Below the pieces are notes generated by a model. That model did no database searches and was not told the origin of the DNA. It saw only the letters and a program-made list of their open reading frames with translations. A program made the translations under genes and the position numbers. Source: Candidatus Tenderia sp. (lineage in GTDB: Bacteria; Pseudomonadota; Gammaproteobacteria; Tenderiales; Tenderiaceae). From it: 64,000 nucleotides of DNA. The stretch covers positions 1 to 64,000 of the forward strand of contig JANOSY010000088.1 in the NCBI GenBank assembly GCA_031416075.1. Direction: 5' to 3'. Below are positions 1-57,707 of this stretch, piece by piece (position 1 is the stretch's first letter; the number at the start of each line of letters is the position of its first letter).

Positions 1-3
1 AAC

Positions 4-12726: not shown

Positions 12727-12740
12727 CGTTATTCAGCCGC

Positions 12741-36835: not shown

Positions 36836-38407
36836 TCACTCCCACTCGATGGTGCCGGGCGGTTTACCGGTAATGTCATAGACAACCCGTGAGATACCGG
36901 CCACTTCGTTCACAATACGGCGCGATACATGGTCGAGAAAAACGTAGGGCAGATGAGCCCAGCGGGCAGTCATAAAATCGACGGTCTCAACGGCACGCAG
37001 TGCCACCACATATTCGTAACGACGACCGTCCCCGGTAACACCAACGGATTTGACTGGCAGAAAGACCGCAAACGCCTGGGATGTTTTGTCGTACAGCTCA
37101 TGTTTACGCAGCTCTTCGATGAAGATGTGGTCCGCCAGACGCAGAATATCCGCGTACTGCTTTTTCACTTCACCCAGGATGCGCACCCCCAGACCGGGAC
37201 CAGGGAATGGGTGACGATAGACCATCTCGTAGGGCAGTCCCAGCTCAACACCCAGCTTCCGCACCTCATCCTTAAACAGCTCACGCAGCGGTTCCAGCAG
37301 CTTGAGCTTCATATTCTCCGGCAGACCGCCCACGTTATGGTGCGATTTGATGACATGGGCCTTGCCATTTTTAGAACCCGCCGACTCAATCACATCGGGG
37401 TAGATGGTCCCTTGCGCCAGCCACTTGGCTGAGGTGAGTTTGTGCGACTCTTCATCAAAGATCTCCACAAACAGGTTGCCGATCACTTTACGTTTCTTCT
37501 CGGGATCACTGACACCCGCCAGGGCATCCAGAAAACGCTGCTCCGCATCAACACGGATCACCTTGACGCCCATATGCTGGGCGAAGGTCGCCATCACCTG
37601 ATCCCCTTCGTTGTAGCGCAACAGGCCATTATCCACAAAGACACAGACCAGCTGTTTGCCAATCGCCTTGTGCAGCAGCGCCGCCACTACCGAGGAGTCA
37701 ACACCACCAGAAAGCCCCAGGATCACCCCATCACTACCGACCTGCTCACGAATAGAGGTGATAGCCGCCTCCGCGATATTGTCCGAGGTCCAGCTAGCAC
37801 CACAGCCACAGATCTCATGCACAAAACGCTCGAGGATGCGCTGCCCCTGACGGGTATGGGTCACCTCGGGGTGAAACTGGACGCCGTAAAAATGACGCGC
37901 CTCATCGGCCATGCCGGAGATGGGGGCAGATTCAGTGGAGGCCATCAGTCTAAAGCCCGGCGGAATCACCACCACACGGTCGCCATGGCTCATCCAGACA
38001 TCAAGAATGCCGTGCCCCTCATCCGTCGACTGGTCTTCAATATCATTTAACAGCGCCGTATGGCCAAAGGCACGCACTTCGGCGTAGCCGTACTCGTGGT
38101 GATCCGCATTTTCAACCCGCCCCCCCAGCTGCACCGCCATGGTCTGCATCCCGTAACAGATGCCAAAAACCGGCACCCCCAGCTCAAATACCAACGCCGG
38201 TGCGGTCGGGGCATCGGTCGCTACGGTGCTCTCCGGTCCACCGGAGAGGATGATTCCCTTGGGGGCAAAGGCACGAATATCGGCCTCAGCCATATCCCAC
38301 GGATGCAATTCACAATAGACCCCCGCTTCACGCACACGGCGACCAATCAGCTGGGTGTACTGAGAACCAAAATCGAGAATCAAAATACGATCAGAGTGGA
38401 TATTCAT
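36836..38407 (-). CDS. guaA: GMP synthase
   Basis: [39 protein letters not shown]. Confidence 0.97.
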
Positions 38408-38486: not shown

Positions 38487-39962
<1,476 letters not shown>

Positions 39963-40512: not shown

Positions 40513-40995
40513 ATGAAGATAGGCAATCTCATCACCCTACTACTGCTGGCACTGTCAGGCATCGGAGCAGCATTGGCCGACGGCGGCATTGAACTCACCA
40601 TGGTCGCTCAGGAGCAGATCATCAGCCAGGATGCCAATGGCAAACAGGTAATCACCCTAACCAACCCCGCCTCTGTTGTGCCCGGCGACACCATTGTCTA
40701 CACCACCCACTACCGCAACAAGGGCAAAGTAATTGCGGAAAACGTGGTGATCACCAATCCCATCCCCAGCGACACCGCCTATATCACCCACAGCGCTTCC
40801 CAGGCAAATGCCAGCGTCAGTTACTCCGTGGATGGTGGCAAGCAGTTTGATACTCCGGCCAACCTGACCATCACCGGCAGCGACGGCAAACCACGCCCCG
40901 CCACCGCCAATGACTACAGCCATATTCGCTGGACCCTGAAAAGCATCGCGCCCGACGCCAGTGGCAGTGTCAATTTTCACGCCCTGGTGCGCTAA
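40513..40995 (+). CDS. Small secreted DUF11-like protein (putative chaperone/cap)
   Basis: AAGGAG RBS, signal peptide ending ALA, PGDTIVYT..Y.N.G...ENVVITNPIP, YSVDGG, IRWTL..I.P..SGSV.F...V. Confidence 0.75.
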   Translation: MKIGNLITLLLLALSGIGAALADGGIELTMVAQEQIISQDANGKQVITLTNPASVVPGDTIVYTTHYRNKGKVIAENVVITNPIPSDTAYITHSASQANASVSYSVDGGKQFDTPANLTITGSDGKPRPATANDYSHIRWTLKSIAPDASGSVNFHALVR

Positions 40996-41212
40996 GCCAA
41001 ACAGACAATGAGGCATTTAAACATGGACCGCAACCCACCCACCAACAGCGCCTGCCGGGCGTTTTGTGACATTAAGATCCTGGCCCGAATCCGCGGATCA
41101 CCGCACTGACGACCACCATTGTTTCAATCTGACACGCAATAGAAGTTATCAGATGGGCGCGCGGGAAGTGCGCCAACCGAATCAGGGAAGATCCAGACAG
41201 GAGATTACGAGG

Positions 41213-42274
41213 ATGAATAAAATACAAACTAACCACAAAAGGCTCAGCATCGGCGTTGCCGGTTTGATGATTATGGCCGCATCACCACACGCCCTGGCGT
41301 TAACCGCCTCCGGCACCAACATCAGCAACAGTGCAACTGTCAATTATAATGTCTCGTCCACCCCACAGACCGCCATCACCAGCAATACTGAAACATTTAT
41401 GGTCGACGCCAAGGTGGATCTGACCGTTGCCGGCACAGGGGGCAATATCAACGTCACCCCCGGCACCACCGCACAGGTGTTGAAATTCACCGTCACCAAT
41501 ACTGGCAACGAGGCGTTTGACTACGCCTTAAGCGCTGTGGCAGGGACCTTGAACTTCACCCCCACCAACGTCGCCATCTACGTGGATGATGGCGATGGTA
41601 TCCGTAATGGCGCTGATACATTGACCAGCACCATCACCAATCTGGCAGCAGGCCTCGGCAAGGTGGTCTTTATCCAGGCCGACATCCCCGCCGGTGCCAC
41701 CAATACCCAGACGGCCAGCTACAACCTGAAGGCAGTGGCTGCCCTGGCCAGTGCGGCCGGGCCCATTCCTGCGGAAGCGGCTAACGTCAAAACCACCAAG
41801 CAGTATGTCTATGCCGACGGTGCTGGCAGTGCCCCAGGGGATGCCACACGGGACAAGACCCACTCCACCAGTCTGACCTACACGGCGGTCACCTCATCCC
41901 TGACCATCAGCAAAGCATCCGCCGTGGTCTGGGATCCGGTCAATCTCGGTGTCAGCCCGCTGCATATCCCCGGCGCAGTGGTGGAATACACCATCACCAT
42001 CAGTAACGGTGCCGGTGGCGCTCAGGCCGATGCCATTGTGCTCACCGATACCCTGGCAGCCAATCTGACCATCCCCCCTACCAGCAATAACTTTGCTGCT
42101 GGCAGGTCGATGCAGATCACCTCACCCAACCTTTACTCGGGTGCGGCAACGGCCCTGACTGACGCCAGTGATGCGGATCAGGGGACGGTGGCCGGGCAGC
42201 TGGTGACCGTCAACGGCATTGTGTTGACGGCCGGACAGTCGGCAACCGTCAAAATCAGGGCTGAAATTCAGTAA
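41213..42274 (+). CDS. Secreted DUF11-domain protein (putative major pilin)
   Basis: Signal peptide ending HALA; mature N-terminus LTASGTNISNSATVNY; C-terminal LTISK...PGAVVEYTITISN...VLTDTL domain. Confidence 0.75.
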   Translation: MNKIQTNHKRLSIGVAGLMIMAASPHALALTASGTNISNSATVNYNVSSTPQTAITSNTETFMVDAKVDLTVAGTGGNINVTPGTTAQVLKFTVTNTGNEAFDYALSAVAGTLNFTPTNVAIYVDDGDGIRNGADTLTSTITNLAAGLGKVVFIQADIPAGATNTQTASYNLKAVAALASAAGPIPAEAANVKTTKQYVYADGAGSAPGDATRDKTHSTSLTYTAVTSSLTISKASAVVWDPVNLGVSPLHIPGAVVEYTITISNGAGGAQADAIVLTDTLAANLTIPPTSNNFAAGRSMQITSPNLYSGAATALTDASDADQGTVAGQLVTVNGIVLTAGQSATVKIRAEIQ

Positions 42275-42279
42275 CGCTG

Positions 42280-45200
42280 ATGTCCTGCACTGTTGTAAGG
42301 GCAATCACAGCTCTCTGTCCCGGCCCACTGGCCGGGCAGCGGGCCCCCTTACACCTTTATATAACAACCCTTCTTGGATTCCTGGTACTGCTCTGGTCAA
42401 CCACGACCCTGGCCGTCCCCCCTGGCACCATCATCAGCAACGTTGCCAGCATCAATTACACCATTGGCGGCCTACCCGGTCTGCCACTCAGCTCCAACAT
42501 CGATCAATTTACCGTGGTCGCCGCCGCCAATACGGTGGATGGCACCATGAGTGTGGCCGCGCCAGGCGGTAATCTATATGCCGGTTCGCCCCGCGCCACC
42601 ACCATCACCCTTAACAATACCGGCACCACCCTGCTGAACAATCAACAACTTACCATTACCGCACCGCTTAACAGCCAAGTAACACTGACCGGCAGTGGGG
42701 TCACGCTGGCCGCTTCCATGAGCAGCAGCACTACCACCACCTACATTTTTAACGTGGCAGATCTACCGGTTGCTGGCAGTCAGGACCTCCAGCTGGTACT
42801 GACCGCAGCCCCCACCGCTGTCAGCCGCCCCCAGACATTCACCGTTGCACACAGTGTTGATGGCACAACACTCCAGCAGCAATCCCTGACACTGAGCGCC
42901 TTGCCACGCACGGCGGCCAGACTGGAGATTCTGCAACACTCCCTCAGTAACAGGGCACTCTCGGCCATCGTCAATTCCACGCTGATCCGGGGGGAGAGCG
43001 GTACCTTTACCCCCATTGCGCCGCCGACACTGCCGGAGGCACCAGACCGGCTAGTGACCGACAGCCCCATCACACTGGAGCCTGCCAACGTATTCAGTAA
43101 TATCCAGACGCTTTTTATCCGGGTCACCGATCTGGATCAAAATCTCGACAGTACGGTTCAGGAGAGTCTCGACATCACCATCAAGCTGCCCGATCGAGAC
43201 GACTATGTCACGCTGCGAATCCTCGAAACCGGCATCGCAACCGGCATCTTCAGCGGTTACGTCACCTTTGAAAAAAACAGCGCCACCAGCAGTGGCGCGC
43301 TACCGGTCAAAAGCAATTCCAAGCTGCTGGTCAGCTATACCGATACGATCGATGGTGACGACAGTGTCGCCGAGACCGTGCTGATCGACCCCTACGGCGT
43401 GGTATTTGACAGCGCCACCGGCCAGCCACTGGATGGTTACACCGTACAGATGGTCAACACCGATACCGGCCTGCCCGCCACGGTCTATGGCGATGACGGT
43501 GTCAGCAGCTACCCCGCCACCGTGATCACCGGCAGCCCGGTGACCGACAGCAGTGGCAACCTCTACAGCTACAATACCGGCGAGTACCGTTTTCCACTGG
43601 CCCCAGCGGGTAATTACAGACTGGTCGTCACCTCACCCAGCAGTGCCCAGTATCGCTGGCCCTCAACCCAGTCAACCGAACAACTCCATAACCTCTCCCG
43701 CAGCAACCTTGCCATCACCCTCGGCTCGCGGGGTGAGCGCTTCCCGCTGCTGCCAGGACCACCGCTGCATATTGATATTCCTGTGGATCCGCTCACCACC
43801 CAGCTCTACCTCCAGCGCAGTGCCAACCGCGAGAGTGTCGCGACGGGTGACCTGATCCGCTACAGCGTCCAGGTTGAGAACAGCACCGCCACCACCCTCA
43901 ACGATGTGGTGCTGACCGAGTCCCTGCCCCACGGTTTCCGCCTGGAGCCAGGCTCCATCAACATGGACAACAACCCGCAACAACCCGCCACCATTGAGCC
44001 ACAAGGTACAACCTTCACCCTGAATCTCGGTGCCATGATCGCCGGTGAGCGCCGCCAGATCCGCTACGTCAGCGCCGTGGGTGCAGCACGCCAAGGACTG
44101 GCCAGCAGCAGTAGCCACGCCCGCGCCAACAGCGGTGCCGCCAACTCCAACCACGCCAGACACGATGCCATGGTGTTTGATGAGTTGATGCGTGGCCGCG
44201 CCCTGCTGCTCGGGCAGGTCATTATCAACCCCACCGACAACGACCCCACCCCCGCCAGCGGCTTAAAAGGGGTGCGTATCTATATGGAAGATGGCCGTTA
44301 CGCCATCAGCGATGAACGGGGCATGTTCCATTTTGACAACCTCACCCCCGGCAACCATCTAGTACAGCTCGATACCGCCACCCTGCCAGACCACTATTCG
44401 CTGGTGATGGGCGACCAGGACACACGCAACGCCCACAGCCCCAGCTCGCAATTTATCGACCTGCAGGGCGGCACACTCTGGCGTACAGAGTTCCACGTTG
44501 CCCGCAAGCCCACCCCCACGGGGGCGCTATCACTGCAACTCAGCAACACCGCACCCGACAGCCAAGGCAACATCCCCTATCAGGTAACGCTGGAGAACCG
44601 GGGTGTCAGCGCCAGCAACCTGCGGTTAACACTCATGATCCCCGCCACCACCCACTACCAGCCCGGCAGCAGCCACGTTGGCGGCCACCCCGTTGGCGAT
44701 CCTGATATTGTCGGCAACGTGCTCATTTATCGCCTGAACAACGACCACCCAAGCGGTGGCTGGCAACGTCAGCTCCACCTCACCCTGCAGGGCGACACTG
44801 GCAATAGTGCCAGTGGTGACAGCCGCGAATTGACCACCAAGGCGTCACTCCAGTTTGATACCCCCGCCCAGCAGAACCAGCGCCTGCCACTGCTGCAACA
44901 TACCTTTACACTCACCACGGAACAGGTCAAACAGGGGGAACAGAAGGTCCTGGCCGAAAGCCTCACCCTCGACAACTTCAACGGCAGCAGCAATGACCTC
45001 AGCGAGGAGCATAAAACAGTCGTGCAACAGCTGGCAGAACGCTGGGCCGGCCAGGATATCCACATCCACGCCATCGGCCACAGCGACAGCCGGGACATTA
45101 TTCAGAAGGAGAAGGAGGACCAGCGCCTGTTTGCCAACAACCAGATCCTCTCTGAATATCGCGCCCATGAGGTCGCTAACCAGCTCCGCCAGCAGCTCTC

Positions 45201-48200
45201 CCTGCCAGCCAACCGCATCTCCTTTGAAAGCAAAGGGGAGGACGAACCTGTCGCCAGTAATGCCACATCGGCGGGTCGAGCGACCAACCGCCGGGTAGAG
45301 CTTCATATATATAGCGTGATCAGCACCACAACCCCACATATCCACGGTACTGCCACCACCAGTGAGCGTCTGAGCAGTACCATCACCGGCCTTACACCCG
45401 GTGAACAGCCAATAACCACCGCGACCGTTACCACAACCACGGAGTACAACAGCCAGTGGCTCGCCAGCCAGACCGCCAGTATTGAGTGGCTGCTGCCCCA
45501 GGAGCGACCCGCGCTCCCCACCACCAACATCGCCATCAAACACCACAGCGACCAGAACGTCACCCTCACCCTCAATGGCCAGCCCGTGGCCGCCATGAAC
45601 TTCAACGGCACCCTCAACAACAGCCATGGTGCTGCCGTCAGCCACTGGGCCGGGGTTGATCTGAACGAGGGCGACAACCTCTTTCATGCCACCATCAGCA
45701 ATGCCCAAGGTGAGTTTATTCAACAACTTAACCGCAACCTGCACTACTCCAGCGCCCCCGTGCGGGCAGAGATTGTGCCAACGCTCTCCACCCTCATTGC
45801 CGATAGCATCACCCCGCCGGTCATCGCCGTACGCCTGTATGACAAAGACAGCCACCCCATCCACGCCGGCATGGAGATTGAGTACCAAATCAGCCCACCG
45901 CACCAGCCCGCCCAAGAGAGTTTTAATACCGACAACATGGTTGCCGCCCCTGGCAGACGCCACTACGCCACCTCCGACAATGATGGTCTCATCCTGATCA
46001 AACTCGCCGCCACCAACAGCACCGATGATCTACGTCTGCAGCTGCCCCTGGCCCACAACCGGACCGTAGAGTTAAAGAGCCGTCTCCAGGCCAAGGCCCG
46101 CGACTGGATACTGGTGGGGCTTGCCGAAGGGGAGGCCGGTTTTAACAGCCTGAGTGGCAATATGGAGGCGCTCGACGGCAACGCCGCCCAGGATCATCTC
46201 TACCAGGACCAACGTATCGCCTTCTTTGCCAAAGGCCAGGTGCTGGGTAAATGGCTGCTGACCCTGGCCTACGACTCCGATAAAGCACAACCACAAAAAC
46301 AGGGGAACGATCCAGCGCTGTTCCAGGCCATCGACCCCGGCAGCTACTACACCGTCTATGGTGATGCCGGTCAAAACGGTTTTGATGCCGCCAGCAGCAA
46401 AAAGCTCTACCTCAAGCTGGAGCGCAACGCCTTCTACCTGCTCTTTGGCGACTACCAGACCCAGCTCAGCGAGACCCGTCTGGCCCGCTACGACCGCACC
46501 CTGACCGGCATAAAGTCCCGTTATCAGAATGAACAATACAACCTCATGCTCTTTATCAGCGAAAACAGCCAATCCTTTGCCAAGGATGAGCTGCGCGGCC
46601 AGGGCAGCACCGGCCCCTACCCGCTGTCACGCAGCAACGTCGCCCTCAACAGCGAAAAGGTAGTGCTGGAGGTGCGCGACCGTTTCCGCAGCGAACAGAT
46701 TGTCAGCAGCACACTGCTGGCGCGCCACAGCGACTACGACATCAACTATCTGGAGGGCAACATCACCTTCCGCGAGCCGGTATTCAGCACCGATGCCAAC
46801 CTCAATCCGCAATACATCGTCATCAAATATGAGTCCTACACCGGCGACAGCCAGACCACCATCGGTGGCCGGGCCGAGGTGAAGGTCAACGACCAGCTCA
46901 AGATCGGCGTTACCCAAGTGAGTGAAGGGCGCGCTACAGGTGATGCCCTGCTCGGGGCCGCCGATCTGCAATACAAGTTCAACGATGCCACCACCCTGCG
47001 CCTTGAGACGGCCCGCAGCCTGATTGCCGACGAAGGCAGCGGCAACGCCTATCTTGCCGAAGTTGAACACCAGACCGTCAACAGCAGTAGCAAACTCTAT
47101 CTGCTGGATAACGACACCCATTTTGGTCTGGGACAAACCAACGCCAGCGAAAATGGCATGTACAAACAAGGGGTTGAGACACAGCTGCGAGCCAGCGACA
47201 ATATCAACATCAAAGGCCAGCTCTACCGCCAGGAGAGCAGCCTCAGCCACGCCAGCCGTGACCTGGCCGAGGCACAGGGCGAGATCAGCCGCGGCACTAC
47301 CCGGCTGCGCGCCGGCCTGCGTGAGGTGCAGGATCAGCGCGGCGACAACAGCCAGCAGCAGTCGGAACAGCTCACCACCGGCATCAGTCAACAGCTGCTG
47401 GACAGTAAGGTGACCCTGCGGGCCGACCGCGAGATCAACCTCAACAATGGCAATGACAGCATCGACTTCCCCGACAAAACCCGGCTTGGGGCCGACTACC
47501 ACATCACCCAGAAGATCAGCCTGTTTGCCGAACAGGAGGTGGCCAACAGCGACCTCCGCGATACCCGCCAGCGCCGTCTTGGTATCAAATCAAACCCCTG
47601 GAACGGCGCGGAGATTTACAGCGGCCTGAGCCACTCCAGCAGTGATAACGGCACTGCAACCAGCGCCAATGTCGCCGCCCGCCAGCGCTGGCAGCTCAAC
47701 CCACAGTGGAGCGTTGATGCCGGTATCGAGCAGTCCCAAACCCTAAGCCAGAATCTGAACCAGAACCAAAGCAGCGGCCCAACCCTCAGCCCACCTGCCG
47801 CCACGCCGTTCAACCTCAACAGCGGATTTGCCATCGGCAGCAACGAAGATTTCAGCGCCGCCTCCTTGGGTGTCACCTATAGCGACAAAGGGTGGCTCTG
47901 GAGCAGCCGTGTCGAGTCGCGCACCGGTGATCTGAGTGACCGTCGCCGCCTTGCCACCTCAGTACAGACATCACCACACAACGACCTCTCCATGCTCGCC
48001 TCCCTCAACCTGCTCACCAGCAGCAGCGCCCAGGGTGAACAGCAGGATAGCTCAACGGTGCAGCTCGGGGCCGCCTACCGCCCCAGCAATAGCCGCTGGC
48101 TGCTGCTGGATAAACTGACCCTGAAAAAAGAGCGCCATAACAACAGCACCCTCGACAGCAGCGGCTGGCGCATCATCAACCTGTTCAATGCCAATTACCG

Positions 48201-48576
48201 AGAAGGGCGCTGGCAGACATCGCTGCAATACGGTGCCAAGAGTGTTAAAGAGACCATCGACGGCAACGAACATAACCAGTTTGTTGACCTCAGCGGCATC
48301 GAGAGCCGTTATGATCTAACGCCAGAGTGGGACATCGGCCTGCATGGCAACATCCTGCACGCCTGGCAGCTCAACCAATATAACTACAACAGTGGTGTCT
48401 CGGTAGGCCACACCGTGGCCAAAAACATCTGGCTGAGCCTTGGCTACAACTTCAACGGCTTCCGCGACAGCGACTTTTCGCGCAGCAGCTATACCAGTCA
48501 GGGGCTGTTCCTCCGTTTCCGGATGAAATTTGACCAAACCACCGTGAAAGAGGCGATCCAGTGGGCCAGCCAATGA
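42280..48576 (+). CDS. Giant outer-membrane protein: N-terminal extension, Ig/DUF11/SdrD-like domains, OmpA-like peptidoglycan-binding domain, large C-terminal beta-barrel
   Basis: Signal-like hydrophobic stretch; GDLIRYSVQVEN..VVLTESLP; GVRIYMEDG..A.SD..G.FHF; GHSD...LSEYRA...G...P..N....GRA.NRRVE (about 44960-45310); C-terminal amphipathic strands ending WLSLGYN..GF.D.DF....Y..QGLFLRFRMKF. Confidence 0.8.
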   Translation: MSCTVVRAITALCPGPLAGQRAPLHLYITTLLGFLVLLWSTTTLAVPPGTIISNVASINYTIGGLPGLPLSSNIDQFTVVAAANTVDGTMSVAAPGGNLYAGSPRATTITLNNTGTTLLNNQQLTITAPLNSQVTLTGSGVTLAASMSSSTTTTYIFNVADLPVAGSQDLQLVLTAAPTAVSRPQTFTVAHSVDGTTLQQQSLTLSALPRTAARLEILQHSLSNRALSAIVNSTLIRGESGTFTPIAPPTLPEAPDRLVTDSPITLEPANVFSNIQTLFIRVTDLDQNLDSTVQESLDITIKLPDRDDYVTLRILETGIATGIFSGYVTFEKNSATSSGALPVKSNSKLLVSYTDTIDGDDSVAETVLIDPYGVVFDSATGQPLDGYTVQMVNTDTGLPATVYGDDGVSSYPATVITGSPVTDSSGNLYSYNTGEYRFPLAPAGNYRLVVTSPSSAQYRWPSTQSTEQLHNLSRSNLAITLGSRGERFPLLPGPPLHIDIPVDPLTTQLYLQRSANRESVATGDLIRYSVQVENSTATTLNDVVLTESLPHGFRLEPGSINMDNNPQQPATIEPQGTTFTLNLGAMIAGERRQIRYVSAVGAARQGLASSSSHARANSGAANSNHARHDAMVFDELMRGRALLLGQVIINPTDNDPTPASGLKGVRIYMEDGRYAISDERGMFHFDNLTPGNHLVQLDTATLPDHYSLVMGDQDTRNAHSPSSQFIDLQGGTLWRTEFHVARKPTPTGALSLQLSNTAPDSQGNIPYQVTLENRGVSASNLRLTLMIPATTHYQPGSSHVGGHPVGDPDIVGNVLIYRLNNDHPSGGWQRQLHLTLQGDTGNSASGDSRELTTKASLQFDTPAQQNQRLPLLQHTFTLTTEQVKQGEQKVLAESLTLDNFNGSSNDLSEEHKTVVQQLAERWAGQDIHIHAIGHSDSRDIIQKEKEDQRLFANNQILSEYRAHEVANQLRQQLSLPANRISFESKGEDEPVASNATSAGRATNRRVELHIYSVISTTTPHIHGTATTSERLSSTITGLTPGEQPITTATVTTTTEYNSQWLASQTASIEWLLPQERPALPTTNIAIKHHSDQNVTLTLNGQPVAAMNFNGTLNNSHGAAVSHWAGVDLNEGDNLFHATISNAQGEFIQQLNRNLHYSSAPVRAEIVPTLSTLIADSITPPVIAVRLYDKDSHPIHAGMEIEYQISPPHQPAQESFNTDNMVAAPGRRHYATSDNDGLILIKLAATNSTDDLRLQLPLAHNRTVELKSRLQAKARDWILVGLAEGEAGFNSLSGNMEALDGNAAQDHLYQDQRIAFFAKGQVLGKWLLTLAYDSDKAQPQKQGNDPALFQAIDPGSYYTVYGDAGQNGFDAASSKKLYLKLERNAFYLLFGDYQTQLSETRLARYDRTLTGIKSRYQNEQYNLMLFISENSQSFAKDELRGQGSTGPYPLSRSNVALNSEKVVLEVRDRFRSEQIVSSTLLARHSDYDINYLEGNITFREPVFSTDANLNPQYIVIKYESYTGDSQTTIGGRAEVKVNDQLKIGVTQVSEGRATGDALLGAADLQYKFNDATTLRLETARSLIADEGSGNAYLAEVEHQTVNSSSKLYLLDNDTHFGLGQTNASENGMYKQGVETQLRASDNINIKGQLYRQESSLSHASRDLAEAQGEISRGTTRLRAGLREVQDQRGDNSQQQSEQLTTGISQQLLDSKVTLRADREINLNNGNDSIDFPDKTRLGADYHITQKISLFAEQEVANSDLRDTRQRRLGIKSNPWNGAEIYSGLSHSSSDNGTATSANVAARQRWQLNPQWSVDAGIEQSQTLSQNLNQNQSSGPTLSPPAATPFNLNSGFAIGSNEDFSAASLGVTYSDKGWLWSSRVESRTGDLSDRRRLATSVQTSPHNDLSMLASLNLLTSSSAQGEQQDSSTVQLGAAYRPSNSRWLLLDKLTLKKERHNNSTLDSSGWRIINLFNANYREGRWQTSLQYGAKSVKETIDGNEHNQFVDLSGIESRYDLTPEWDIGLHGNILHAWQLNQYNYNSGVSVGHTVAKNIWLSLGYNFNGFRDSDFSRSSYTSQGLFLRFRMKFDQTTVKEAIQWASQ

Positions 48577-48595
48577 CAACCGCCACAACATCAAC

Positions 48596-51500
48596 ATGGA
48601 CAGTACGATGAGATACGGACGTTTTATTCAGCTCTGCCTGCTGGCCACCCTGCTGCTGGTGGTACTTTTGCCTCGTCCAGGGGTAGCGGCCATCACCGCC
48701 ACCACCCTATTTGAAGGGTCAACGGATGGCGATGCCAGCGCTTATACTGGACCCTCACTCAGCCCGTCGGCCAACAACCTGATTCTCGTCTGGATAACCA
48801 ATACCCGCTCCTCCTCCCCCACCGTGCCCACCTTTACCGGTAACGGCCTCACCTGGGTGCAGGTCGCCACCGTCACCTGGGGCAGCAGCGGCTCCCCCAC
48901 CGCACGTACCACCCTGTTCCGGGCCATGGGATCCTCCCCCGCTACCGGGATCAACAGCATCGATTTTGCCGGCAATACCCAGACCGGCGTGGCGATGTCA
49001 ATGATCCAGTTCAACAACGTCGACATCACCGGCAGCAACGGTGCCAACGCCCTGGTTCAGAGTGTCACCGGCAGAACTGATAGCGCCTCCTCCACCGCCG
49101 GGCTGAGCCTCACCCTGGCAGCGCTGGGCAATGTTGCCAACGCCTCTGTGGGCGGCTTTTCCAACTTTATCAACTCCGCCACCTCCATCTCCCCAGGGTC
49201 CGGCTACACCGCCTCGTCCGGCACCACCTATCTGGCCCCCAGCATCAGCCTGCGCGCCGAGTGGAAGAGTGCGGGCAGCACCATCGTCAACGTCACACAG
49301 AGCGGTACCTCCCACATTGGCGGGATCGCCGTCGAACTCAAGGCCGACCTCTGTGCCGGCAATGTGGTCACCACCATCGCCAACAGTGGTGATGGCTCCC
49401 TGCGTGAATGTATCATCAAGGCCAACCTCAACCCCGGCACCACCATCACCTTCAACATTACCGCTGCGGCCAACCAATCTTCCGGTGCCAACTCATGGTG
49501 GCGTATCACCCCCACCACCGCGCTACCCACCATCACCGCTGCCAATACGGTGATTGATGCCACCACCCAGACCAGTAATCGTGGCAATACCAATACCCTC
49601 GGCCCGGAAGTTGAACTCAACGGTGCCACCGTCGGTGCCGGGGGGTGGGACGGTTTTGGTGTGGCTTCGCCAGCCACCGGAGTCATCATCCGCGGGTTCA
49701 TCATCAATCAGTGGTCAGGGTCAGGTATCTCACTCTGGAGCGGCAGCGGCACCATCAGGGGCAACTACATCGGTACCAACTACGCCGGTACCAGTGCCCT
49801 GGCCAATACCAGCTACGGCCTCTACCTCAATACCAATGGCAATACCGTCGGTGGCACCAGTGCTGCGGACCGTAACGTCATTGCCGGTAACGGCGGGCCT
49901 GGCATCTACATTGTGAGCAACAGCAATACCGTGCAGGGCAACTACATCGGCGTCAACGCCAGTGCTGGGGCGATAGTTGCCAATAGTGGCCACGGCGTAC
50001 AGATACTCTCCGGTGCCACCGGCAATACCATTGGGGGCACAGCGGCGGGGGCAGGCAATGTGATTGCTGGCAACGGCGCTGATGGCATCAACCATAGTTC
50101 AACAGGCAGCAATACCGTACAAGGCAACTACATCGGTACCAACGCCAGCAGCGCGACACTCTCTAATGGTGGCAATGGCATTGCCATCTCTGCCGGCACA
50201 CTCAATGTGGGCAACGCCTCTGAATCCCAATCAAACATTATTGGCCCCAACAGTGGTGCGGGCATCAACCTGGCGGGCGGAACAGTGAATCTGGCAGGCA
50301 GTGTCACCGTGCGTGGCAACATGGCCCTGGCCAGCGGCACACTCGCCATGGGCAGCGCCACACTCAACCTCTCCGGTAACTGGAGCCGTACCAGCACCAC
50401 CGTCACAACCGGCACCTCCACCGTGGTGCTCAACGGCACTGCCCTGCAGAGCCTGACCATGAACGGCAGTAACTTCAATAATCTGACCATCACCAACGGC
50501 AGTGTTGCAGGTATCAGTTTTAATGATGGTTTTAACGCCGCCAACATCACCAATACCACCCCCGCCTCCCGGCTGACCTTTAAGGCGGGCGCAACCTACA
50601 CCCTCTCCGGCACCCTGACACTGGTCGGCAGCAGTGGCAACCAGATCATTCTGCTCAGCGACTCCCCCGGCACCCGCTTTACCCTGAACCCAACTGCTGG
50701 CGCGCAGAGTGTCAACTATGTCAACGTCAAGGATTCACAGGCCTCAACCAACAACATCACCGCCGATAACTCCACCAACAGTGGTGGCAATGATGATGCC
50801 GAGGCCGCACCACGCTGGGTCTTTAATGCCCCCGATACCACGCCGCCCGCCAGGATCATCGACCTGACGGTCACCTCCTCCACCACCTCATCCATCACCC
50901 TGAACTGGACTTCACCGGGAGATGACAATAACAGTGGCACGGCTACCAGCTATGACCTGCGTTACTCCACCTCGCCCATCACGGCGGGCAACTGGGCCAG
51001 CGCCACACAGGCCGTTGGCGAACCAACACCCTTGGTGGCCGGTAGCAGCCAATCATTTAGCGTGACCGGCCTGGCCGCTGCCACCACCTACTACTTTGTA
51101 ATGACCACCAGCGATGAGGTCCCCAATACCTCCGCCCTATCTGACTCAGCGGTTGGCACCACCGGCGGCGGTGGTGGCGGCAATGTGAGCTACTACGCCA
51201 AACGCAGTAACAGTGTCTCCATCGCCTCCGGCATCACCAGCAACAGCGGCTCCTGCGGCACAGATCCAACCGCCTACTACATTGAAGAGCTGTCAAAAAA
51301 CATCAGCGACATGTGTGTCACAGCAAATGCCTACCGCTGGGAGCAGTTGACGGCCGGCAGCTACTCGGACCACTACTTCAACACCGCCTATGTGGCCAAT
51401 ACCACCGTTACCGGCGTCTCTTATCAGGTCACCATCCGCGACAGCGGAACAGTAGGTTTCCAGCTTTTTTATGTCACCTCCGGCGGTACCAAAACCTATC

Positions 51501-54214
51501 TTGGCACTGAAGTCACCCAGGTAAACAGTGGCATAGAAACCAATAACTACATCCTTAACCTCTCCGGCCAGTCTGGCACCATCCCCACCGGGGCAAAACT
51601 TGGGTTTCGTACCCGTGGTATCTCTGTCAGCCCCAGCTTCAGGATCTATGTGGGTAATCTGGATGGCAGGACACCCAGCAACCTCTCCGGTCATCTAATC
51701 GTCAACGAGGCCGTGGGCAGCAGCGATACCACCGCCCCGGCCAGTGTCACGCTCTCTACCGGTACCATCACCAACAACTCCGTGCTGCTGAACTGGGTAT
51801 CACCGGGGGATGATGGCAATACCGGCACCGCCCAGATCTACGACATCCGTTACTCCACCGCCGCCATCACGGCGGGCAACTGGGCCAGCGCCACCCAGGT
51901 AGGCGGGGAACCAACACCTCTGGTGGCGGGCACTGCCCAGACCTATACCGTGACCGGGCTGGCCCCCAATACCCTCTACTACTTTGCCATCAAAACCGGC
52001 GACGAGACACCCAACTGGTCAGCGGTCTCCAACTCCCCCAGCGCCACCACCTACGATCCACCGGTGGGTGGCTTTAGTGTCGATAATGTGATCCCCGCCA
52101 CCCAGATCAGCCAGTCCACCAACGGTTCAGGCATCATCACCATCAACTGGAAGGGGCGCGACAATCAGGCCAATAACGTCACACTCAAAACCTTTCAGTA
52201 CAGCGTGGACGGTGGGGCTAGCTGGAACGCCCCCACCAACGGCGACGCCTCCGCCGCACTCTCCGCCACCTGGAGCAACAACGGCGGCAGTGGCTGGACC
52301 ACCGCCACCACCTTGGCTGCCGCTCCTGTCAACAGCTTCACCTTCAATACCAAACATGCCAATGTCTCGGGGTTAAACGGGGTGGACCAGAACGATGTAC
52401 GGGTCCGGTTTCTATTACGTGATGCCACTATGGATAGCCAGAGCTATGTCACCTCGACCGATTTTCGTATCGATGCCCTTGCCCCTACCGCGACCATTGG
52501 CAGCGCCATTTACGATGCTGCCAACGACCTGCTGACCATCACCGGCACCAACTTCACCACCATTGCGGCGGCCAGCACCGACATCAAAGCCTATGTCGAC
52601 TGGAGCAAATTTGTCTGGGACATCAACGGCGACAACGCCACCACCACCGACATCAGCTTTGTGCTGGGTGACATCACCAGCCTGATCATCACCGACGATA
52701 CCACCATCACCCTGCAGTTCAGTGCCGCCAAAGGGATCGCCATCGAAGCCACCGCCGGCTACAGCACCACAGGCGGGGTCGACACCCTCGATGTTGCCGC
52801 CGGTTTTGCCCGAGACGACTACGGCAATGCCGCCACCACCGATGCGGTGGCCAACGGGCCACTCGTTACCACCTCGGTCTCAGGGATACTCTACGATACC
52901 GACCGCACCACCAGCCTCGGTTTTGGCATGACGGTACGGCTACTCATCAACGGCGCCAGCATGGGCTCCACCACCACCGACGGCAGTGGTCGCTATACCT
53001 TCTGGAATAACGTCAGTGCCGGCAATGCCATTCTGGTCTACATCGACAATGGTGCCAGCACCGCCATCAGCGCCACCGTTACCGCCAACGCCAGCCTCTC
53101 GGACTTTGATCTCTACGCCAGCCATCTGGTGGCCCGCCACGATAATGGGGGCGCACTCAGCAACGCCAACCTGGGAAGTGCCAAGGGGGCGTATGTCGAC
53201 ACCGATATTGTTTACTCCGTCACCGGCAGCGCGTTAACCGTCAGTGGCAGCGCCACCCGGCTACACATCCCGGCGGGCAAAAGTTTTACCCCGGAGGGCA
53301 ACGTCACCACCCCGGCCATGAGTAATCTTGGCACCTTTGTCGGCGGCAGTGGTGCCATTACCATCAATGGCAACCTGAGTAACAGCGGCAGTTATACCGC
53401 CAGCAGCGCCACCACCACTGTTGCTGCTGACTTCAGCAACAGCGGTACCTTTACAGCCGCAGGCGGTACCGTGCTGCTTAACGGTATCAATCAAAACATC
53501 ACGGGGACCACTACCTTCTTCAACCTGACCAAAACCGTGGCCACCGCCGACACCCTATTTTTCAGCGTCGGCTCCACCACCACCGTCACGGGTAGCGCCA
53601 CCCTGCAGGGGGCATCGGGCCAGCCACTGAGTCTGCTCTCGATCACCCCCGGCAGCCGCTGGAACTTCAACATCGGCAGCAGCGCCACTAAGTCCTTCAG
53701 TTTTCTGAATGTGATCGACAGTGACGCCTCAGGCTCTGCCGCTGCCAAAAAACCGCTCATCGCCCAACCCAGCAACTCTACCGACAGCGGCAACAATGTG
53801 GACTGGTTTGGCCTGCCCTCCATCTCGGTGATCAAATCCAGTACCCTGATATCCGACCCCGTTAACGGCACCACCAGCCCGCTGCATATCCCGGGGGCAA
53901 TCCTTAACTATCAGATCCTCACCACCAACTCTGGCAACGGCTCACCCGATACCAATACCGTGGTGGTAACCGATGCACTGGACTCCAGCAAGCTTGAGTT
54001 TGATGTCACCACCGGCATCACCTTTACCGCCAATACCTCGGGACTGACACTGGGCACAGTGAGTTATGCCCATACCGCCACCCCCACCACCTATACCTAC
54101 ACCCCCACCGGCCCCTACGACGCCAATGTGGCGGGCATCAAGATCACCACCAGCGGTACGTTTGCCAGCGCCGGTGCCAGCTTTACCCTCAACTTCCGCG
54201 TCCGCATAAAATAG
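48596..54214 (+). CDS. Large secreted adhesin (beta-helix repeats, two FN3-like domains, C-terminal DUF11-like domain)
   Basis: Signal peptide; T/S/G/N-rich; repeated N.(I/V).GNYIG; two L.W.SPGDD...YD.RYS...VTGL...T.YYF domains; C-terminal ISVIK...DPVN...PLHIPGA.L.Y. Confidence 0.8.
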   Translation: MDSTMRYGRFIQLCLLATLLLVVLLPRPGVAAITATTLFEGSTDGDASAYTGPSLSPSANNLILVWITNTRSSSPTVPTFTGNGLTWVQVATVTWGSSGSPTARTTLFRAMGSSPATGINSIDFAGNTQTGVAMSMIQFNNVDITGSNGANALVQSVTGRTDSASSTAGLSLTLAALGNVANASVGGFSNFINSATSISPGSGYTASSGTTYLAPSISLRAEWKSAGSTIVNVTQSGTSHIGGIAVELKADLCAGNVVTTIANSGDGSLRECIIKANLNPGTTITFNITAAANQSSGANSWWRITPTTALPTITAANTVIDATTQTSNRGNTNTLGPEVELNGATVGAGGWDGFGVASPATGVIIRGFIINQWSGSGISLWSGSGTIRGNYIGTNYAGTSALANTSYGLYLNTNGNTVGGTSAADRNVIAGNGGPGIYIVSNSNTVQGNYIGVNASAGAIVANSGHGVQILSGATGNTIGGTAAGAGNVIAGNGADGINHSSTGSNTVQGNYIGTNASSATLSNGGNGIAISAGTLNVGNASESQSNIIGPNSGAGINLAGGTVNLAGSVTVRGNMALASGTLAMGSATLNLSGNWSRTSTTVTTGTSTVVLNGTALQSLTMNGSNFNNLTITNGSVAGISFNDGFNAANITNTTPASRLTFKAGATYTLSGTLTLVGSSGNQIILLSDSPGTRFTLNPTAGAQSVNYVNVKDSQASTNNITADNSTNSGGNDDAEAAPRWVFNAPDTTPPARIIDLTVTSSTTSSITLNWTSPGDDNNSGTATSYDLRYSTSPITAGNWASATQAVGEPTPLVAGSSQSFSVTGLAAATTYYFVMTTSDEVPNTSALSDSAVGTTGGGGGGNVSYYAKRSNSVSIASGITSNSGSCGTDPTAYYIEELSKNISDMCVTANAYRWEQLTAGSYSDHYFNTAYVANTTVTGVSYQVTIRDSGTVGFQLFYVTSGGTKTYLGTEVTQVNSGIETNNYILNLSGQSGTIPTGAKLGFRTRGISVSPSFRIYVGNLDGRTPSNLSGHLIVNEAVGSSDTTAPASVTLSTGTITNNSVLLNWVSPGDDGNTGTAQIYDIRYSTAAITAGNWASATQVGGEPTPLVAGTAQTYTVTGLAPNTLYYFAIKTGDETPNWSAVSNSPSATTYDPPVGGFSVDNVIPATQISQSTNGSGIITINWKGRDNQANNVTLKTFQYSVDGGASWNAPTNGDASAALSATWSNNGGSGWTTATTLAAAPVNSFTFNTKHANVSGLNGVDQNDVRVRFLLRDATMDSQSYVTSTDFRIDALAPTATIGSAIYDAANDLLTITGTNFTTIAAASTDIKAYVDWSKFVWDINGDNATTTDISFVLGDITSLIITDDTTITLQFSAAKGIAIEATAGYSTTGGVDTLDVAAGFARDDYGNAATTDAVANGPLVTTSVSGILYDTDRTTSLGFGMTVRLLINGASMGSTTTDGSGRYTFWNNVSAGNAILVYIDNGASTAISATVTANASLSDFDLYASHLVARHDNGGALSNANLGSAKGAYVDTDIVYSVTGSALTVSGSATRLHIPAGKSFTPEGNVTTPAMSNLGTFVGGSGAITINGNLSNSGSYTASSATTTVAADFSNSGTFTAAGGTVLLNGINQNITGTTTFFNLTKTVATADTLFFSVGSTTTVTGSATLQGASGQPLSLLSITPGSRWNFNIGSSATKSFSFLNVIDSDASGSAAAKKPLIAQPSNSTDSGNNVDWFGLPSISVIKSSTLISDPVNGTTSPLHIPGAILNYQILTTNSGNGSPDTNTVVVTDALDSSKLEFDVTTGITFTANTSGLTLGTVSYAHTATPTTYTYTPTGPYDANVAGIKITTSGTFASAGASFTLNFRVRIK
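50834..52036 (+). repeat. Duplicated FN3-like module within the adhesin (about 50834-51148 and 51725-52036)
   Basis: Near-identical peptide ITAGNWASATQ..GEPTPLVAG and an identical 31-nt DNA run in both copies. Confidence 0.85.
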
Positions 54215-54302: not shown

Positions 54303-55664
54303 ATGAACCATGAGATCAAACTGCCGGAACGTGATGTGCTCACCGTCTCCCGCCTGGTGCGTGAAACACGCGCCGTGCTGGAGGGAAGTTTTCCGCTGCT
54401 CTGGCTGGAGGGCGAGATCTCCAACTACTCGCGCCCCGCCTCCGGCCACCTGTACTTCTCCTTGAAGGATGAGGCGGCGCAGGTGCGTTGTGCCATGTTC
54501 CGCACCCGCAACCTGCAACTCCGTTTTGCCCCCACCAACGGCATGCAGGTGATGGTACGGGCGCGTATCACTATGTATGAACCACGCGGCGAGTTTCAGA
54601 TTGTAGTGGAGCAGATGGAAGAGGGCGGCCTGGGTCTGCTGCAACGCAACTTCGAGGCACTGAAAACCCGTCTCGGTCAGGAGGGGCTGTTCGACACCGC
54701 CCACAAAAGGCCACTGCCGACGATGCCGCAACGGCTGGGGGTAATCACCTCCGCCACCGGGGCCGCCATTCGCGACATCATCAGCGTGCTGAAACGGCGC
54801 TATCCGGCGCTGCCGGTGCTGATCTACCCCGTACCGGTGCAGGGCGAGTCAGCGGGTCGTGAGATCGCGGCGGCAATCAAACTCGCCAACCAACGCAAGG
54901 AGTGCGATGTGCTGATCGTCGGCCGCGGCGGCGGCTCGCTGGAGGATCTCTGGGCCTTTAATGAAGAGGTGGTGGCACGGGCTATCTACACCAGCGCCAT
55001 CCCCATCATCTCCGCCGTCGGCCATGAGGTTGACTTCACTATCGCCGACTTTGTGGCCGACCTACGCGCCGCTACCCCTTCCGCCGCCGCTGAACTGGTA
55101 ACGCCGGATATGGCTGAGCTGAAACAGCGCCTGATGCAACAACAGCAACGTCTGCACAATCGCATCCGCGCCACACTGCAACAGTCACAACAACGGCTCA
55201 GCTGGTTAAGCAAACGGCTACAACAACAACACCCAGGGCAACAGCTCCAGCAAAAAGGACAAAGACTTGATGAGTTGGAGCAACGTCTGTTGCAGGGCAT
55301 CAACATGCAGCTGCGGCATCGGGGCCACCAGCTCCAGCAACTCACCACACGCCTACACCACAACTCACCACGCCACCGTCTGCAACAGCTAAAAACTCAC
55401 CATAAACAGCTACAACAGCGGCTCCACCGCGCCTGGCAGTCAACGCTGAACAACAAAAAACAGCAGCTCGCCGCCACCAGCCGCGCGCTCAACAACATCA
55501 GTCCGCTGGCAACACTGGAGCGGGGTTATGCCATCGTGCAACAGCTGCCTAAACGGCAAGTAGTTCGTGATGCAACGGTGATGCAGCCGGGTGATAAAAT
55601 TCAGGCTCGCTTGTCCAAAGGGGTGTTGCTCTGCACCGTTGATGAAATTAAACAAGAGGTTTAA
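54303..55664 (+). CDS. xseA: Exodeoxyribonuclease VII large subunit
   Basis: GEISN...SGHLYFSLKD, RGGGSLEDLWAFN, AVGHEVD, TPSAAAE, SPLATLERGY. Confidence 0.96.
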   Translation: MNHEIKLPERDVLTVSRLVRETRAVLEGSFPLLWLEGEISNYSRPASGHLYFSLKDEAAQVRCAMFRTRNLQLRFAPTNGMQVMVRARITMYEPRGEFQIVVEQMEEGGLGLLQRNFEALKTRLGQEGLFDTAHKRPLPTMPQRLGVITSATGAAIRDIISVLKRRYPALPVLIYPVPVQGESAGREIAAAIKLANQRKECDVLIVGRGGGSLEDLWAFNEEVVARAIYTSAIPIISAVGHEVDFTIADFVADLRAATPSAAAELVTPDMAELKQRLMQQQQRLHNRIRATLQQSQQRLSWLSKRLQQQHPGQQLQQKGQRLDELEQRLLQGINMQLRHRGHQLQQLTTRLHHNSPRHRLQQLKTHHKQLQQRLHRAWQSTLNNKKQQLAATSRALNNISPLATLERGYAIVQQLPKRQVVRDATVMQPGDKIQARLSKGVLLCTVDEIKQEV

Positions 55665-56523
55665 TCCGTTGTTATCTACCTACAAAAATCTAGCCATACT
55701 GGCATTGGCACTGCTCTTTTCACACGGCAGCTTGGCCGTCGAACTTCCATTGCAGCAGCTTGTGCCAGGCGGCGTTGCTCTATTACCCATCGCCAATGCC
55801 ACAGACAAACAGCCACAAGCCGAATACAACGGCAAACCGGTGATGGTGATCAACAGTCAGGGGCGGTGGTATGCAGTGGTGGGCATCCCACTTGATGCTG
55901 CCATCGGGCAACAACAGATCACCGTGACGCTGGCCGACGGCAGCGATGTCACCCAGACGTTCACCGTCAGCGACAAGGCTTACGAGACCCAGCGCCTCAT
56001 CATTGCAGACAAACGCAAGGTCGAGCCCAACGAGGAGGAGATGCAACGCATCACTCAGGAGAAGGTGGAGACGGACAAGGCGCTGGCCCACTGGGGCGAT
56101 GCACTGCTGACCGACAACCTGCAACTCGACCTACCGGTAGAGGGGCGGCTCAGCAGCGCCTTCGGCCTGCGCCGCTTTTTTAATGACCAACCACGCGCAC
56201 CCCACAGCGGTCTCGACATTGCCGCACCAGAGGGAACACCAATCAAGGCCCCTGCCAACGGTCGTGTAATTTTGAGCGGTGATTTCTTTTTTAACGGCAA
56301 TGGCATCTACATCGACCACGGCCAGGGATTAGTCACCATGTACTGCCACATGAGCCGCATCGACGTAAAAGAGGGGCAAGAACTAAAGCGGGGCGAAATC
56401 ATCGGCGCGGTGGGCATGACCGGCCGCGCCACCGGGCCACACCTGCACTGGGGGGTTAGCCTCAACGACGCACGGGTCAACCCATCACTATTTGTACCCG
56501 CACTGATGAACAGAGTCCCATAA
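55642..56523 (+). CDS. M23 family metallopeptidase
   Basis: HSGLDIA, HG.GL.T.Y.H, GRATGPHLHW; signal peptide; start approximate. Confidence 0.9.
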   Translation: MKLNKRFNPLLSTYKNLAILALALLFSHGSLAVELPLQQLVPGGVALLPIANATDKQPQAEYNGKPVMVINSQGRWYAVVGIPLDAAIGQQQITVTLADGSDVTQTFTVSDKAYETQRLIIADKRKVEPNEEEMQRITQEKVETDKALAHWGDALLTDNLQLDLPVEGRLSSAFGLRRFFNDQPRAPHSGLDIAAPEGTPIKAPANGRVILSGDFFFNGNGIYIDHGQGLVTMYCHMSRIDVKEGQELKRGEIIGAVGMTGRATGPHLHWGVSLNDARVNPSLFVPALMNRVP

Positions 56524-56561
56524 ATAGCGGGTCACAGAAGACTATCAAGGAGGCCATCACC

Positions 56562-57630: not shown

Positions 57631-57707
57631 CTCCCGGCTCACTATGCACCCTCTCTCTCATGTGAGGGGCTCATAGCACAGTTGTAATGGCATATTGCCA
57701 TGCGATG

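Follow-up and report, generated by a model that had tools for sequence, protein, structure and literature searches.

In chaperone-usher pili, an incomplete immunoglobulin (Ig) fold is made whole by an N-terminal extension of the next subunit, and the available text of PMC13721041 describes a tip adhesin that offers only a groove, a terminator that only donates and an outer-membrane (OM) barrel that acts as platform. Sortase pili, as covered in that same portion of the source (PMC13721041), consist of covalently joined Ig-like subunits with Lys-Asn isopeptides, arranged on a tip-shaft-base plan. The Saci_0406 thread of Sulfolobus acidocaldarius uses donor strands without a chaperone, with a proposed isopeptide from Asn57 to the N-terminal amine two subunits along (PMC9715654, in the part of it available). 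The DUF11 family has been renamed CLIPPER in the accessible text of PMC12617251 and has a CnaA-like sandwich fold; the crystal structure 9IFR contains an intramolecular Lys715-Asn806 isopeptide catalysed by Asp748. Here, we analysed 64,000 nucleotides of Candidatus Tenderia sp. DNA (contig JANOSY010000088.1, positions 1 to 64,000; this whole stretch is called the window), in which reading of the open reading frames (ORFs) gave four plus-strand genes between guaBA and xseA. They encode a small DUF11-like protein, a 353-amino-acid (aa) subunit (“pilin”), a 2098-aa OM protein and a 1872-aa tip or cargo protein (“adhesin”), all with Sec-like signal peptides as judged by eye. See Table 1 for the coordinates of all features.

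We judge this four-gene cluster to be a real and probably new strand-complementation system, either for a fibre or for anchoring. Our preferred account, to which we give an even chance, is a Sec-exported surface fibre, a polymer of subunits built on a naturally split DUF11 (CLIPPER) domain. The body of the domain, with the Lys and the catalytic Asp, would lie at the C-terminus of the adhesin and the subunit, and a hairpin carrying the Asn at the mature N-terminus of the subunit and the OM protein. This would give a polar chain with the adhesin (acceptor only) at the distal end, n subunits (donor and acceptor) in between and the OM protein (donor only) at the base. With the hairpin in place, Lys, Asn and Asp would be arranged as in a complete CLIPPER domain, and an isopeptide would probably form autocatalytically.

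The proposed fibre shares with chaperone-usher pili its polar logic, with an acceptor-only adhesin, a donor-only end and an OM barrel. However, this locus is without a PapD-like chaperone or usher, the barrel has about 30 or more strands, the donor is a hairpin, the subunit is of the DUF11/CLIPPER type, the terminator lies within the OM protein, and the joint is likely locked covalently. Archaeal threads combine chaperone-free donor-strand complementation with proposed covalent isopeptide links between subunits, as our fibre would; unlike in those threads, the bond proposed here is Lys-Asn with a catalytic triad, the threads are archaeal and have no OM, and our profiles gave 0 hits to PDB sequences. 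The adhesin domains of 9IFR belong to the same family and have the same triad, but there domain and bond lie in one chain, in tandem repeats (PMC12617251, accessible text), whereas here the domain is split, often across proteins. In sortase pili, the bond between subunits is made by sortase, from Lys to a C-terminal Thr carboxyl, while this locus has an OM barrel; no LPXTG-type tail was found in the translations of the cluster, where the last element of each protein is the acceptor strand or the barrel. SpyTag/SpyCatcher and isopeptag are engineered split isopeptide domains, derived from CnaB or pilin domains, in which a short reactive strand ligates to the rest; the split proposed here differs in being natural, CnaA-like and used for polymerisation. 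TasA, archaeal bundling pili and tat-fimbriae are likewise donor-strand fibres without an usher, but they differ in fold and have neither a Lys-Asn triad nor a component in an OM. Text matches to “DUF11” in the tat-fimbriae paper turned out to be DUF1102, which is unrelated.

The closest of these precedents are chaperone-usher pili, which share the logic but have unrelated parts and no covalent bond, and archaeal threads, with donor strands and another isopeptide; further ones are sortase pili (covalent, by an enzyme), CLIPPER (shared chemistry, in cis) and SpyTag/SpyCatcher. We judge the system to be made of new parts on a known logic: the logic of a strand-complemented fibre is established, the parts are new, and the joint is probably self-ligating. 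No published account of such a bacterial system turned up in full-text searches of the literature; Tables S2 and S3 of PMC12617251, which lie outside that search, might list the family.

The evidence begins with the ends of the proteins. The mature N-termini of the subunit and the OM protein are 33% identical over 70 residues (E 9e-6, BLASTP, single comparison), and a profile of the subunit family matches the N-terminus of the OM protein, 42403-42642, at E 2.4e-4 in a search of its own genome. With a sub-profile of the donor segment, matches (E 8.6e-7 to 1.3e-4) lie at the N-terminus of the OM protein both in the window and in three other loci. At the opposite end, the C-terminal domains of the subunit and the adhesin are 32% identical over 131 residues (E 4e-10, BLASTP), aligned to the last residue of both, and the subunit profile matches the adhesin C-terminus, 53819-54211, at E 4.5e-22. 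Both likenesses, including the halt of the shared C-terminal domain at the stop codon, had been claimed in an earlier note on this DNA and are borne out by these scores. A recount also gave the same codon positions that the note had listed: Lys at 41912 and 53834, Asp at 42047 and 53972, and Asn at 41327 and 42439. Across the complete set of 95 contigs (3.49 Mb) of this genome, the subunit profile finds just three places, namely its own gene, the adhesin C-terminus and the OM N-terminus.

The distribution of the two pieces is complementary. The donor sub-profile has no match in the adhesins, and no hairpin-less acceptor with Lys and Asp was found in the OM protein, where the acceptor sub-profile matches weakly and at the complete internal DUF11 domain. 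An OM hairpin with Asn and no Lys/Asp body, together with an adhesin with Lys and Asp and no hairpin, means that the residues can meet only between molecules. We therefore see a strong case, from the sequences, that the OM protein and the adhesin would take part in complementation in trans. That the hairpin motif is instead a general export signal was ruled out, as neither the adhesin nor the small protein, both exported, has it.

The acceptor domains are best read as truncated DUF11/CLIPPER domains that stop before the last two strands, a reading supported by alignment. The complete internal DUF11 domain of the OM protein served as reference for the full domain (the hhalign template), and against it the acceptor covers positions 3-102 of 151 (probability 95%, E 4e-8). 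Since it stops at position 102, the last third of the domain is missing; the C-terminal domain is thus an incomplete sandwich, and it lacks the arrangement of Lys, Asp and Asn within one domain of one chain. All 34 acceptor-bearing sequences end at one alignment column. In an alignment of 35 subunits with identity down to 33%, 34 end at one column past the last strand and one is shorter. Membership in DUF11/CLIPPER lies above the curated cut-off for the small protein (PF01345), the subunit (TIGR01451) and the OM protein (both models). The subunit scores 26.8 bits with TIGR01451 from NCBIfam (cut-off 24), and its isolated C-terminal domain reaches E 1.3e-4 with PF01345, at 22.7 bits, under the cut-off of 24.6. 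The adhesin C-terminal domain has no direct Pfam match, and its link to DUF11 runs through the subunit (E 4e-10). A search of 1.84 billion representative sequences with the acceptor profile gave 27,612 hits at E<=1e-3; each of the 150 listed is a giant protein of tandem DUF11 repeats. The earlier note had assigned the domain to the CnaB-type fold, which has to be replaced by a CnaA-like fold according to the DUF11/CLIPPER structure 9IFR (PMC12617251, accessible part). It had also proposed a single donated strand; the candidate donor piece is instead a two-strand hairpin of about 35 residues.

The triad is highly conserved. Of the 120 subunit relatives listed, 118 have the complete set of Asn, Lys and Asp, and the subunit alignment conserves the N-terminal GTxISNxATVNY, the Lys of “LTVTK,” “DPxN,” “IPGA,” and the Asp of “TD.” One of the two exceptions is an N-terminally cut fragment, and the other has Asn to Ser and Lys to Val jointly, with the Asp kept. 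In the OM family, the hairpin Asn is kept in 107 of 120 members, in a motif whose start lies at a median of residue 45, just past the signal peptide; 3 others carry Ser or Thr instead, and 10, mostly records truncated at the N-terminus, are gapped there. The family alignment shows little or no variation at G49, T50, I52, N54 and A56, and a regular expression for the donor motif matches 38 of 45 OM-family N-termini. Among the adhesin C-terminal domains of seven loci, Lys is present in 8/8 and Asp in 7/8. Joint conservation of the three residues had been proposed as a check in the earlier note, and these counts answer it in the affirmative.

The small protein provides a natural comparison. It is a lone acceptor-like domain with the same last strand, with Ala at the Lys position and Asn at the Asp position (“ITNP” for “TD”). 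The acceptor sub-profile aligns with residues 53-184 of its 185-aa ORF, and its family scores are 34.6 bits with PF01345 (cut-off 24.6) and 44.5 with TIGR01451. The small proteins of related loci all stop at the last strand of the acceptor, lack the Lys and have “TNP” or similar in place of “TD.” This family resemblance could be taken to mean that no complementation between molecules occurs at all. The C-terminal domain would then be a stable, shortened Ig domain used, like C-terminal sorting domains, as a sorting or recognition module for passage through the giant barrel, the N-terminal motif would pack on its own neighbour domain, and Lys, Asp and Asn would be ordinary DUF11 residues. The small protein, the subunit and the adhesin do share the C-terminal domain type and its end position, the profile link between the hairpin and canonical last strands is weak, and the small protein, without Lys and Asp, is modelled alone fairly confidently in the Atlas (predicted template modelling score [pTM] 0.78, predicted local distance difference test [pLDDT] 0.81), which shows that modelling yields a fold even for a domain that has no hairpin. 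We nevertheless find this explanation improbable. It does not account for Lys and Asp being kept on the acceptors at the frequencies above, yet both being gone from the small protein, nor for an OM hairpin Asn kept without a Lys partner or for the joint loss of Asn and Lys, and the acceptor is short of a complete domain by about a third.

Covalent Lys-Asn locking of the joints is plausible from this pattern. The triad could also be a relic of an ancestral intramolecular bond, in a strand-complemented fibre held by non-covalent insertion only, as in chaperone-usher pili. Donor-strand chaperone-usher pili are very stable (PMC13721041, available text), and the triad is incomplete in the adhesin of locus L039 (Ser for Asp) and in a subunit paralogue of locus L036 (Ser for Asn). 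However, relics should not have survived in 118/120 subunits and 107/120 OM proteins at identities down to about 33%, and the small protein shows that the fold tolerates losing both Lys and Asp. We regard a purely non-covalent fibre as distinctly unlikely.

Next, we consider related loci in other genomes. The subunit profile matches 31 of 400 genomes of the same class, including that of the window and two unpublished ones (G296 and G039), and ten related stretches from that search were read for ORFs. Genes for the small protein, the subunit and the OM protein are found side by side with adhesin genes in the window and in five of seven other loci (L033, L034, L035, L036, and L038); L037 is without an adjacent adhesin, and the contig of L039 begins at the subunit gene. 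These loci encode one or two subunits, an OM protein of about 2000 aa with an N-terminal hairpin, and one or two proteins of 240-3525 aa that end in an acceptor. A homologue of the small protein adjoins the subunit gene in six of the seven, the seventh contig being the one that begins at the subunit gene. The distribution described in the earlier note, with donor-only, donor-plus-acceptor and acceptor-only proteins, recurs in seven other loci. A long-subunit variant occurs in three more loci (L040-L042), where proteins of 894-1008 aa have the donor motif at one end, the N-terminus, and an acceptor with Lys and Asp at the other, separated by several Ig-like domains. These loci also encode the small protein and an OM protein (2061-2070 aa) whose N-terminus is of the donor type. 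In L033, the acceptor of a 909-aa adhesin (11119-13848, plus strand) is 62% identical to the acceptor of the subunit of its own locus, versus 26-29% to other adhesin acceptors, which suggests that subunit and cargo have exchanged domains. Here, then, a protein without a hairpin bears a groove of the subunit type.

Two genes of these loci are interrupted. In L038, a subunit paralogue at 12703-13698 (minus strand) is broken by a TAG into a 163-aa ORF with donor and middle domain and a 163-aa ORF with the acceptor, and may be a pseudogene, an assembly error or a natural split. In L035, frameshifts or assembly errors divide the OM gene (6342-11526, minus strand) into three ORFs (424, 369, and 952 aa).

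The subunit and OM families are large. At least 154 subunit relatives of about 350 aa were found at E<=1e-3, and 120 listed ones carry only “hypothetical,” “DUF11” or “TIGR01451” as names. For the OM protein, 1336 of the 8000 candidates scored are relatives at E<=1e-3, and their names go no further than “OmpA family” or “DUF11 domain-containing.” Look-ups in the Atlas yielded only “DUF11 domain-containing” or “hypothetical” clusters. Source labels of the relatives include Gamma- and Deltaproteobacteria, Desulfuromonas, and Latescibacterota. A “middle” sub-profile of the subunit matches all subunit homologues as well as the N-terminal part of the long subunits. OM-family profile matches that reach the barrel occur in roughly 20 of 400 genomes, an inexact count. 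A tally of 295 of 400 genomes for the OM profile was set aside, as that profile included full-length rows and the tally mostly reflects the common OmpA-like domain. The unpublished genomes in that OM search are G296, G308, G141 and G039, and no other claim made here draws on them.

Several results weigh against the fibre. First, AlphaFold2 modelled the single mature subunit chain (46-row alignment) with a pLDDT of 95.3 and a pTM of 0.81, and with 93-97 over the first 40 residues; a hairpin placed this confidently is docked within its own chain, and a closed subunit monomer with an intramolecular bond is possible on this model. Second, the match between the hairpin and the last strands of DUF11 is statistically weak. 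The N-terminal hairpins align to the missing part of the template (positions 116-135) at E 0.02-0.04 and a probability of 1-2%, and the donor profiles have no significant match in complete DUF11 domains of the same genome. Pfam, too, has no family for either 40-residue hairpin by itself. Third, the second subunit of L036 (340 aa, 13047-14069, minus strand) has Ser at the donor Asn with the acceptor Lys and Asp kept, and in the adhesin of L039 the Asp is replaced by Ser. Asn and Lys were lost jointly in one case only. Longer, fused subunit relatives did not turn up in the search, which is weak evidence. Finally, the OmpA-like domain of the OM protein should be periplasmic and bind peptidoglycan, so that the N-terminal arm, some 850 residues long, has two possible courses: through the barrel, or to a meeting with the fibre base on the periplasmic side.

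Some of these points have another side. We accept the hairpin as the last strands of DUF11, as its motif and length suggest: complete DUF11 domains of the same genome end alike by eye, in an N-x-A-x-[VI] strand, a turn and an N-rich final strand, and by our count the distance from the Asn to the hairpin end is 25-26 residues, versus 22 to the domain end in 9IFR. The Lys and Asp of the L036 paralogue would be orphans within one chain, which fits partners in trans. The OM hairpin could reach the last subunit at the periplasmic mouth of the barrel, by analogy with usher-bound terminators, or through the barrel. As for the closed model, the earlier note had named as a refuting outcome that the N-terminal strand of the subunit folds back into the same molecule; in the single-chain prediction it does, in a run that has no partner in trans. 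Because such a run offers no groove in trans, closure is expected either way. AlphaFold models of tat-fimbriae, as given in the available text of PMC11821415, have a donor strand that is “closed” in the monomer and opens in oligomers. A three-chain complex prediction (adhesin C-terminal domain, mature subunit as the scored partner, and OM residues 46-220) scored 0.84, 0.84, and 0.85, with 0.86 when the third chain was replaced and 0.39 and 0.00 when the partner was replaced; we count it neither way.

The closed model agrees with another system, in which only the OM hairpin and the cargo acceptor complement each other in trans, for covalent display of the cargo. The subunit would then be self-closed, a compact two-domain surface or periplasmic protein with an intramolecular isopeptide. 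The model is confident, the two hairpin types and two acceptor types of most loci fit a one-to-one pairing, and the return path could be a conserved stretch that joins the middle domain to the acceptor and is about 37 residues long. Two-segment domains around an inserted domain are on record among isopeptide-domain adhesin/pilin families, such as the GBS104-like Ig domain of 3TXA, residues 137-211 plus 587-717 (PMC12617251, accessible text). However, anchoring alone leaves the most conserved and constant gene of the cluster without a role, and a single-chain prediction cannot put a strand in trans. The ends of the 894-1008 aa subunits are separated by about 900 residues, which makes closure within one chain unlikely, and the L033 adhesin has a subunit-type acceptor and no hairpin. 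We consider anchoring without a fibre rather unlikely, and complementation between subunits in trans, judged from the sequences, to have moderate support. The interpretation in the earlier note thus stands as to the truncated C-terminal domains, the distribution of the parts and the conservation of the residues, while the single-chain model places the subunit hairpin in cis.

For the structure searches, Foldseek with the subunit model returned generic tandem Ig-like matches (integrin legs, PrgB, and CfaB fusions) with template modelling scores (TM-scores) of <=0.39, which are uninformative. The subunit and acceptor profiles had no hits to PDB sequences at E up to 1 and 10. Neither kind of search linked the subunit, by sequence or fold, to archaeal threads or TasA-like fibres.

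The OM protein is a giant. AlphaFold2 modelled residues 1040-2098 with a pLDDT of 80.3 and a pTM of 0.74, as two Ig-like domains, about 10 shorter strands, 31 long strands and a terminal helix. The long strands span residues 1510-2082, and the shorter ones, which precede them, may belong to the barrel or form a plug. The best Foldseek matches of the barrel are Deinococcus SlpA, LptD, MtrB, and SprA, all with TM-scores of <=0.27, and no usher is among the matches listed. On this model, the barrel is of a giant type with about 30 strands, not usher-like, and it could be wide enough for the passage of folded Ig-like domains. The last ~950 residues match nothing in Pfam or NCBIfam. Autotransporter barrels have 12-16 strands and are joined directly to the passenger. 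The OM protein differs from autotransporters and inverse autotransporters in its 31 long and about 10 shorter strands, and in that its N-terminal arm is separated from the barrel by an OmpA-like domain and two Ig-like domains. The OmpA-like domain also has several further NCBIfam OmpA-type matches. The internal DUF11 domain matches PF01345 at residues 510-603 (26.9 bits) and TIGR01451 at 514-561 (44.6 bits), with a genome-scan match at 43807-44091.

Assembly of the preferred fibre could proceed as follows. All four proteins would leave the cytoplasm by Sec, and the adhesin would enter the barrel first. A subunit hairpin would then insert into the adhesin C-terminal domain, with Lys-Asn ligation making the step irreversible, and further subunits would join at the base in the same way until the hairpin of the OM protein fills the last groove, which would end growth and anchor the fibre. 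The covalent joint would be a driving force in the ATP-free periplasm, the barrel of about 30 strands the export pore, and the OmpA-like domain the tie between base and peptidoglycan. The small protein would hold hairpins reversibly, keeping subunits from closing or polymerising in the periplasm, or would cap fibres. That it is such a non-covalent pseudo-acceptor, a hairpin chaperone or cap, is the least supported step, and we say only that it may be.

We tentatively extend this to a widespread class of Gram-negative fibres, a generalisation we think less likely than not. In it, the split CLIPPER domain would be a built-in ligase that makes a self-catalysed Lys-Asn bond in trans, with no need of ATP and independently of chaperone and usher, the small look-alike would be a “groove-donating” chaperone, one protein of 2000 aa would serve as pore, terminator and peptidoglycan anchor, and the acceptor would be a modular cargo tag for the tip. 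If true, this would add a new pathway to the few bacterial pilus classes, the first in bacteria with an OM to join subunits covalently without an enzyme. Split ligation in the style of SpyTag/SpyCatcher would already be natural, and new orthogonal ligating pairs would become available. Two large families, with >1300 OM proteins (of the 8000 scored candidates) and at least 154 subunit relatives, would gain a function. Furthermore, surveys of intramolecular isopeptides that use single-chain models may count such subunits as intramolecular.

Table 1. Features of the cluster and its neighbours (positions in the window)
Feature	Position	Strand	Remarks
Small secreted DUF11-like protein	40513-40995	+	160 aa from Met at 40513; ORF open from 40438 (185 aa)
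353-aa subunit (“pilin”)	41213-42274	+	signal peptide, donor hairpin, middle Ig-like domain, conserved linker, acceptor domain to stop codon
Subunit donor hairpin	41300-41407	+	mature residues 1-36 (mature N-terminus begins at 41300); candidate isopeptide Asn at 41327-41329
Subunit middle Ig-like domain	41408-41749	+	mature residues 37-150; from secondary structure of the model
Subunit acceptor domain	41858-42271	+	predicted DUF11/CLIPPER without last hairpin; Lys 41912-41914, Asp 42047-42049
2098-aa OM protein	42280-48576	+	signal peptide, donor hairpin, Ig-like domains, complete internal DUF11, OmpA-like domain, two Ig-like domains, giant beta-barrel (predicted), C-terminal helix
OM donor hairpin	42415-42519	+	residues 46-80; Asn54 at 42439-42441
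OM complete internal DUF11	43807-44199	+	residues ~510-640; Arg at Lys position, Glu at Asp position
OmpA-like peptidoglycan-binding domain	44977-45309	+	residues 900-1010; PF00691 E 4.3e-10, 40.3 bits (cut-off 27.2)
OM beta-barrel region	46219-48525	+	residues ~1314-2082; AlphaFold2 model
1872-aa tip or cargo protein (“adhesin”)	48596-54214	+	signal peptide, two fibronectin type III domains within a variable N-terminal part, C-terminal acceptor
Adhesin acceptor domain	53819-54211	+	residues 1742-1872, to stop codon; Lys 53834-53836, Asp 53972-53974
guaA	36836-38407	minus	cluster neighbour
guaB	38487-39947	minus	cluster neighbour
xseA	54303-55664		directly beyond cluster, then M23 peptidase gene (region to 56523)

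The gene for the OM protein starts 5 bases past the stop codon of the subunit gene. The variable part of the adhesin has putative parallel beta-helix-like repeats, read from the sequence by eye. No PapD-, PapC-, sortase- or type IV pilus-like families were found by Pfam and NCBIfam in the four proteins or their neighbours, in agreement with the earlier note, and inspection of the four signal peptides by eye shows no evident lipobox, such as would suit type V pili (Bacteroidota Fim/Mfa), whose lipoprotein precursors a protease cleaves ahead of strand exchange. We rejected the reading of the locus as one for chaperone-usher, sortase, type IV or type V pili, as no such families are present.

Elsewhere in the same genome (G000), three proteins of 501-603 aa (L046, L047, and L048, on contigs C41, C24, and C27) each end in two complete tandem DUF11 domains, with final strands that resemble the donor hairpin and no first-strand Lys. 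A second giant ORF of 1969 aa (contig C73, ~34786-38385) matches positions 1229-1654 of the OM profile and has a DUF11 hit, and may encode a related large envelope protein.

Around the cluster, an 812-aa ORF adjoining guaA (34328-36766, minus strand) has no Pfam family at E<=1e-5, and in L039 xseA likewise follows the cluster. The G+C content of the window is 0.43-0.49 at 1-6000 and 56001-60000, versus 0.52-0.60 across most of the window, the cluster included. Among the runs listed as containing words sampled here, none is of RNA; one run of unspecified kind, which says nothing on expression, contains 0.37 of the sampled words.

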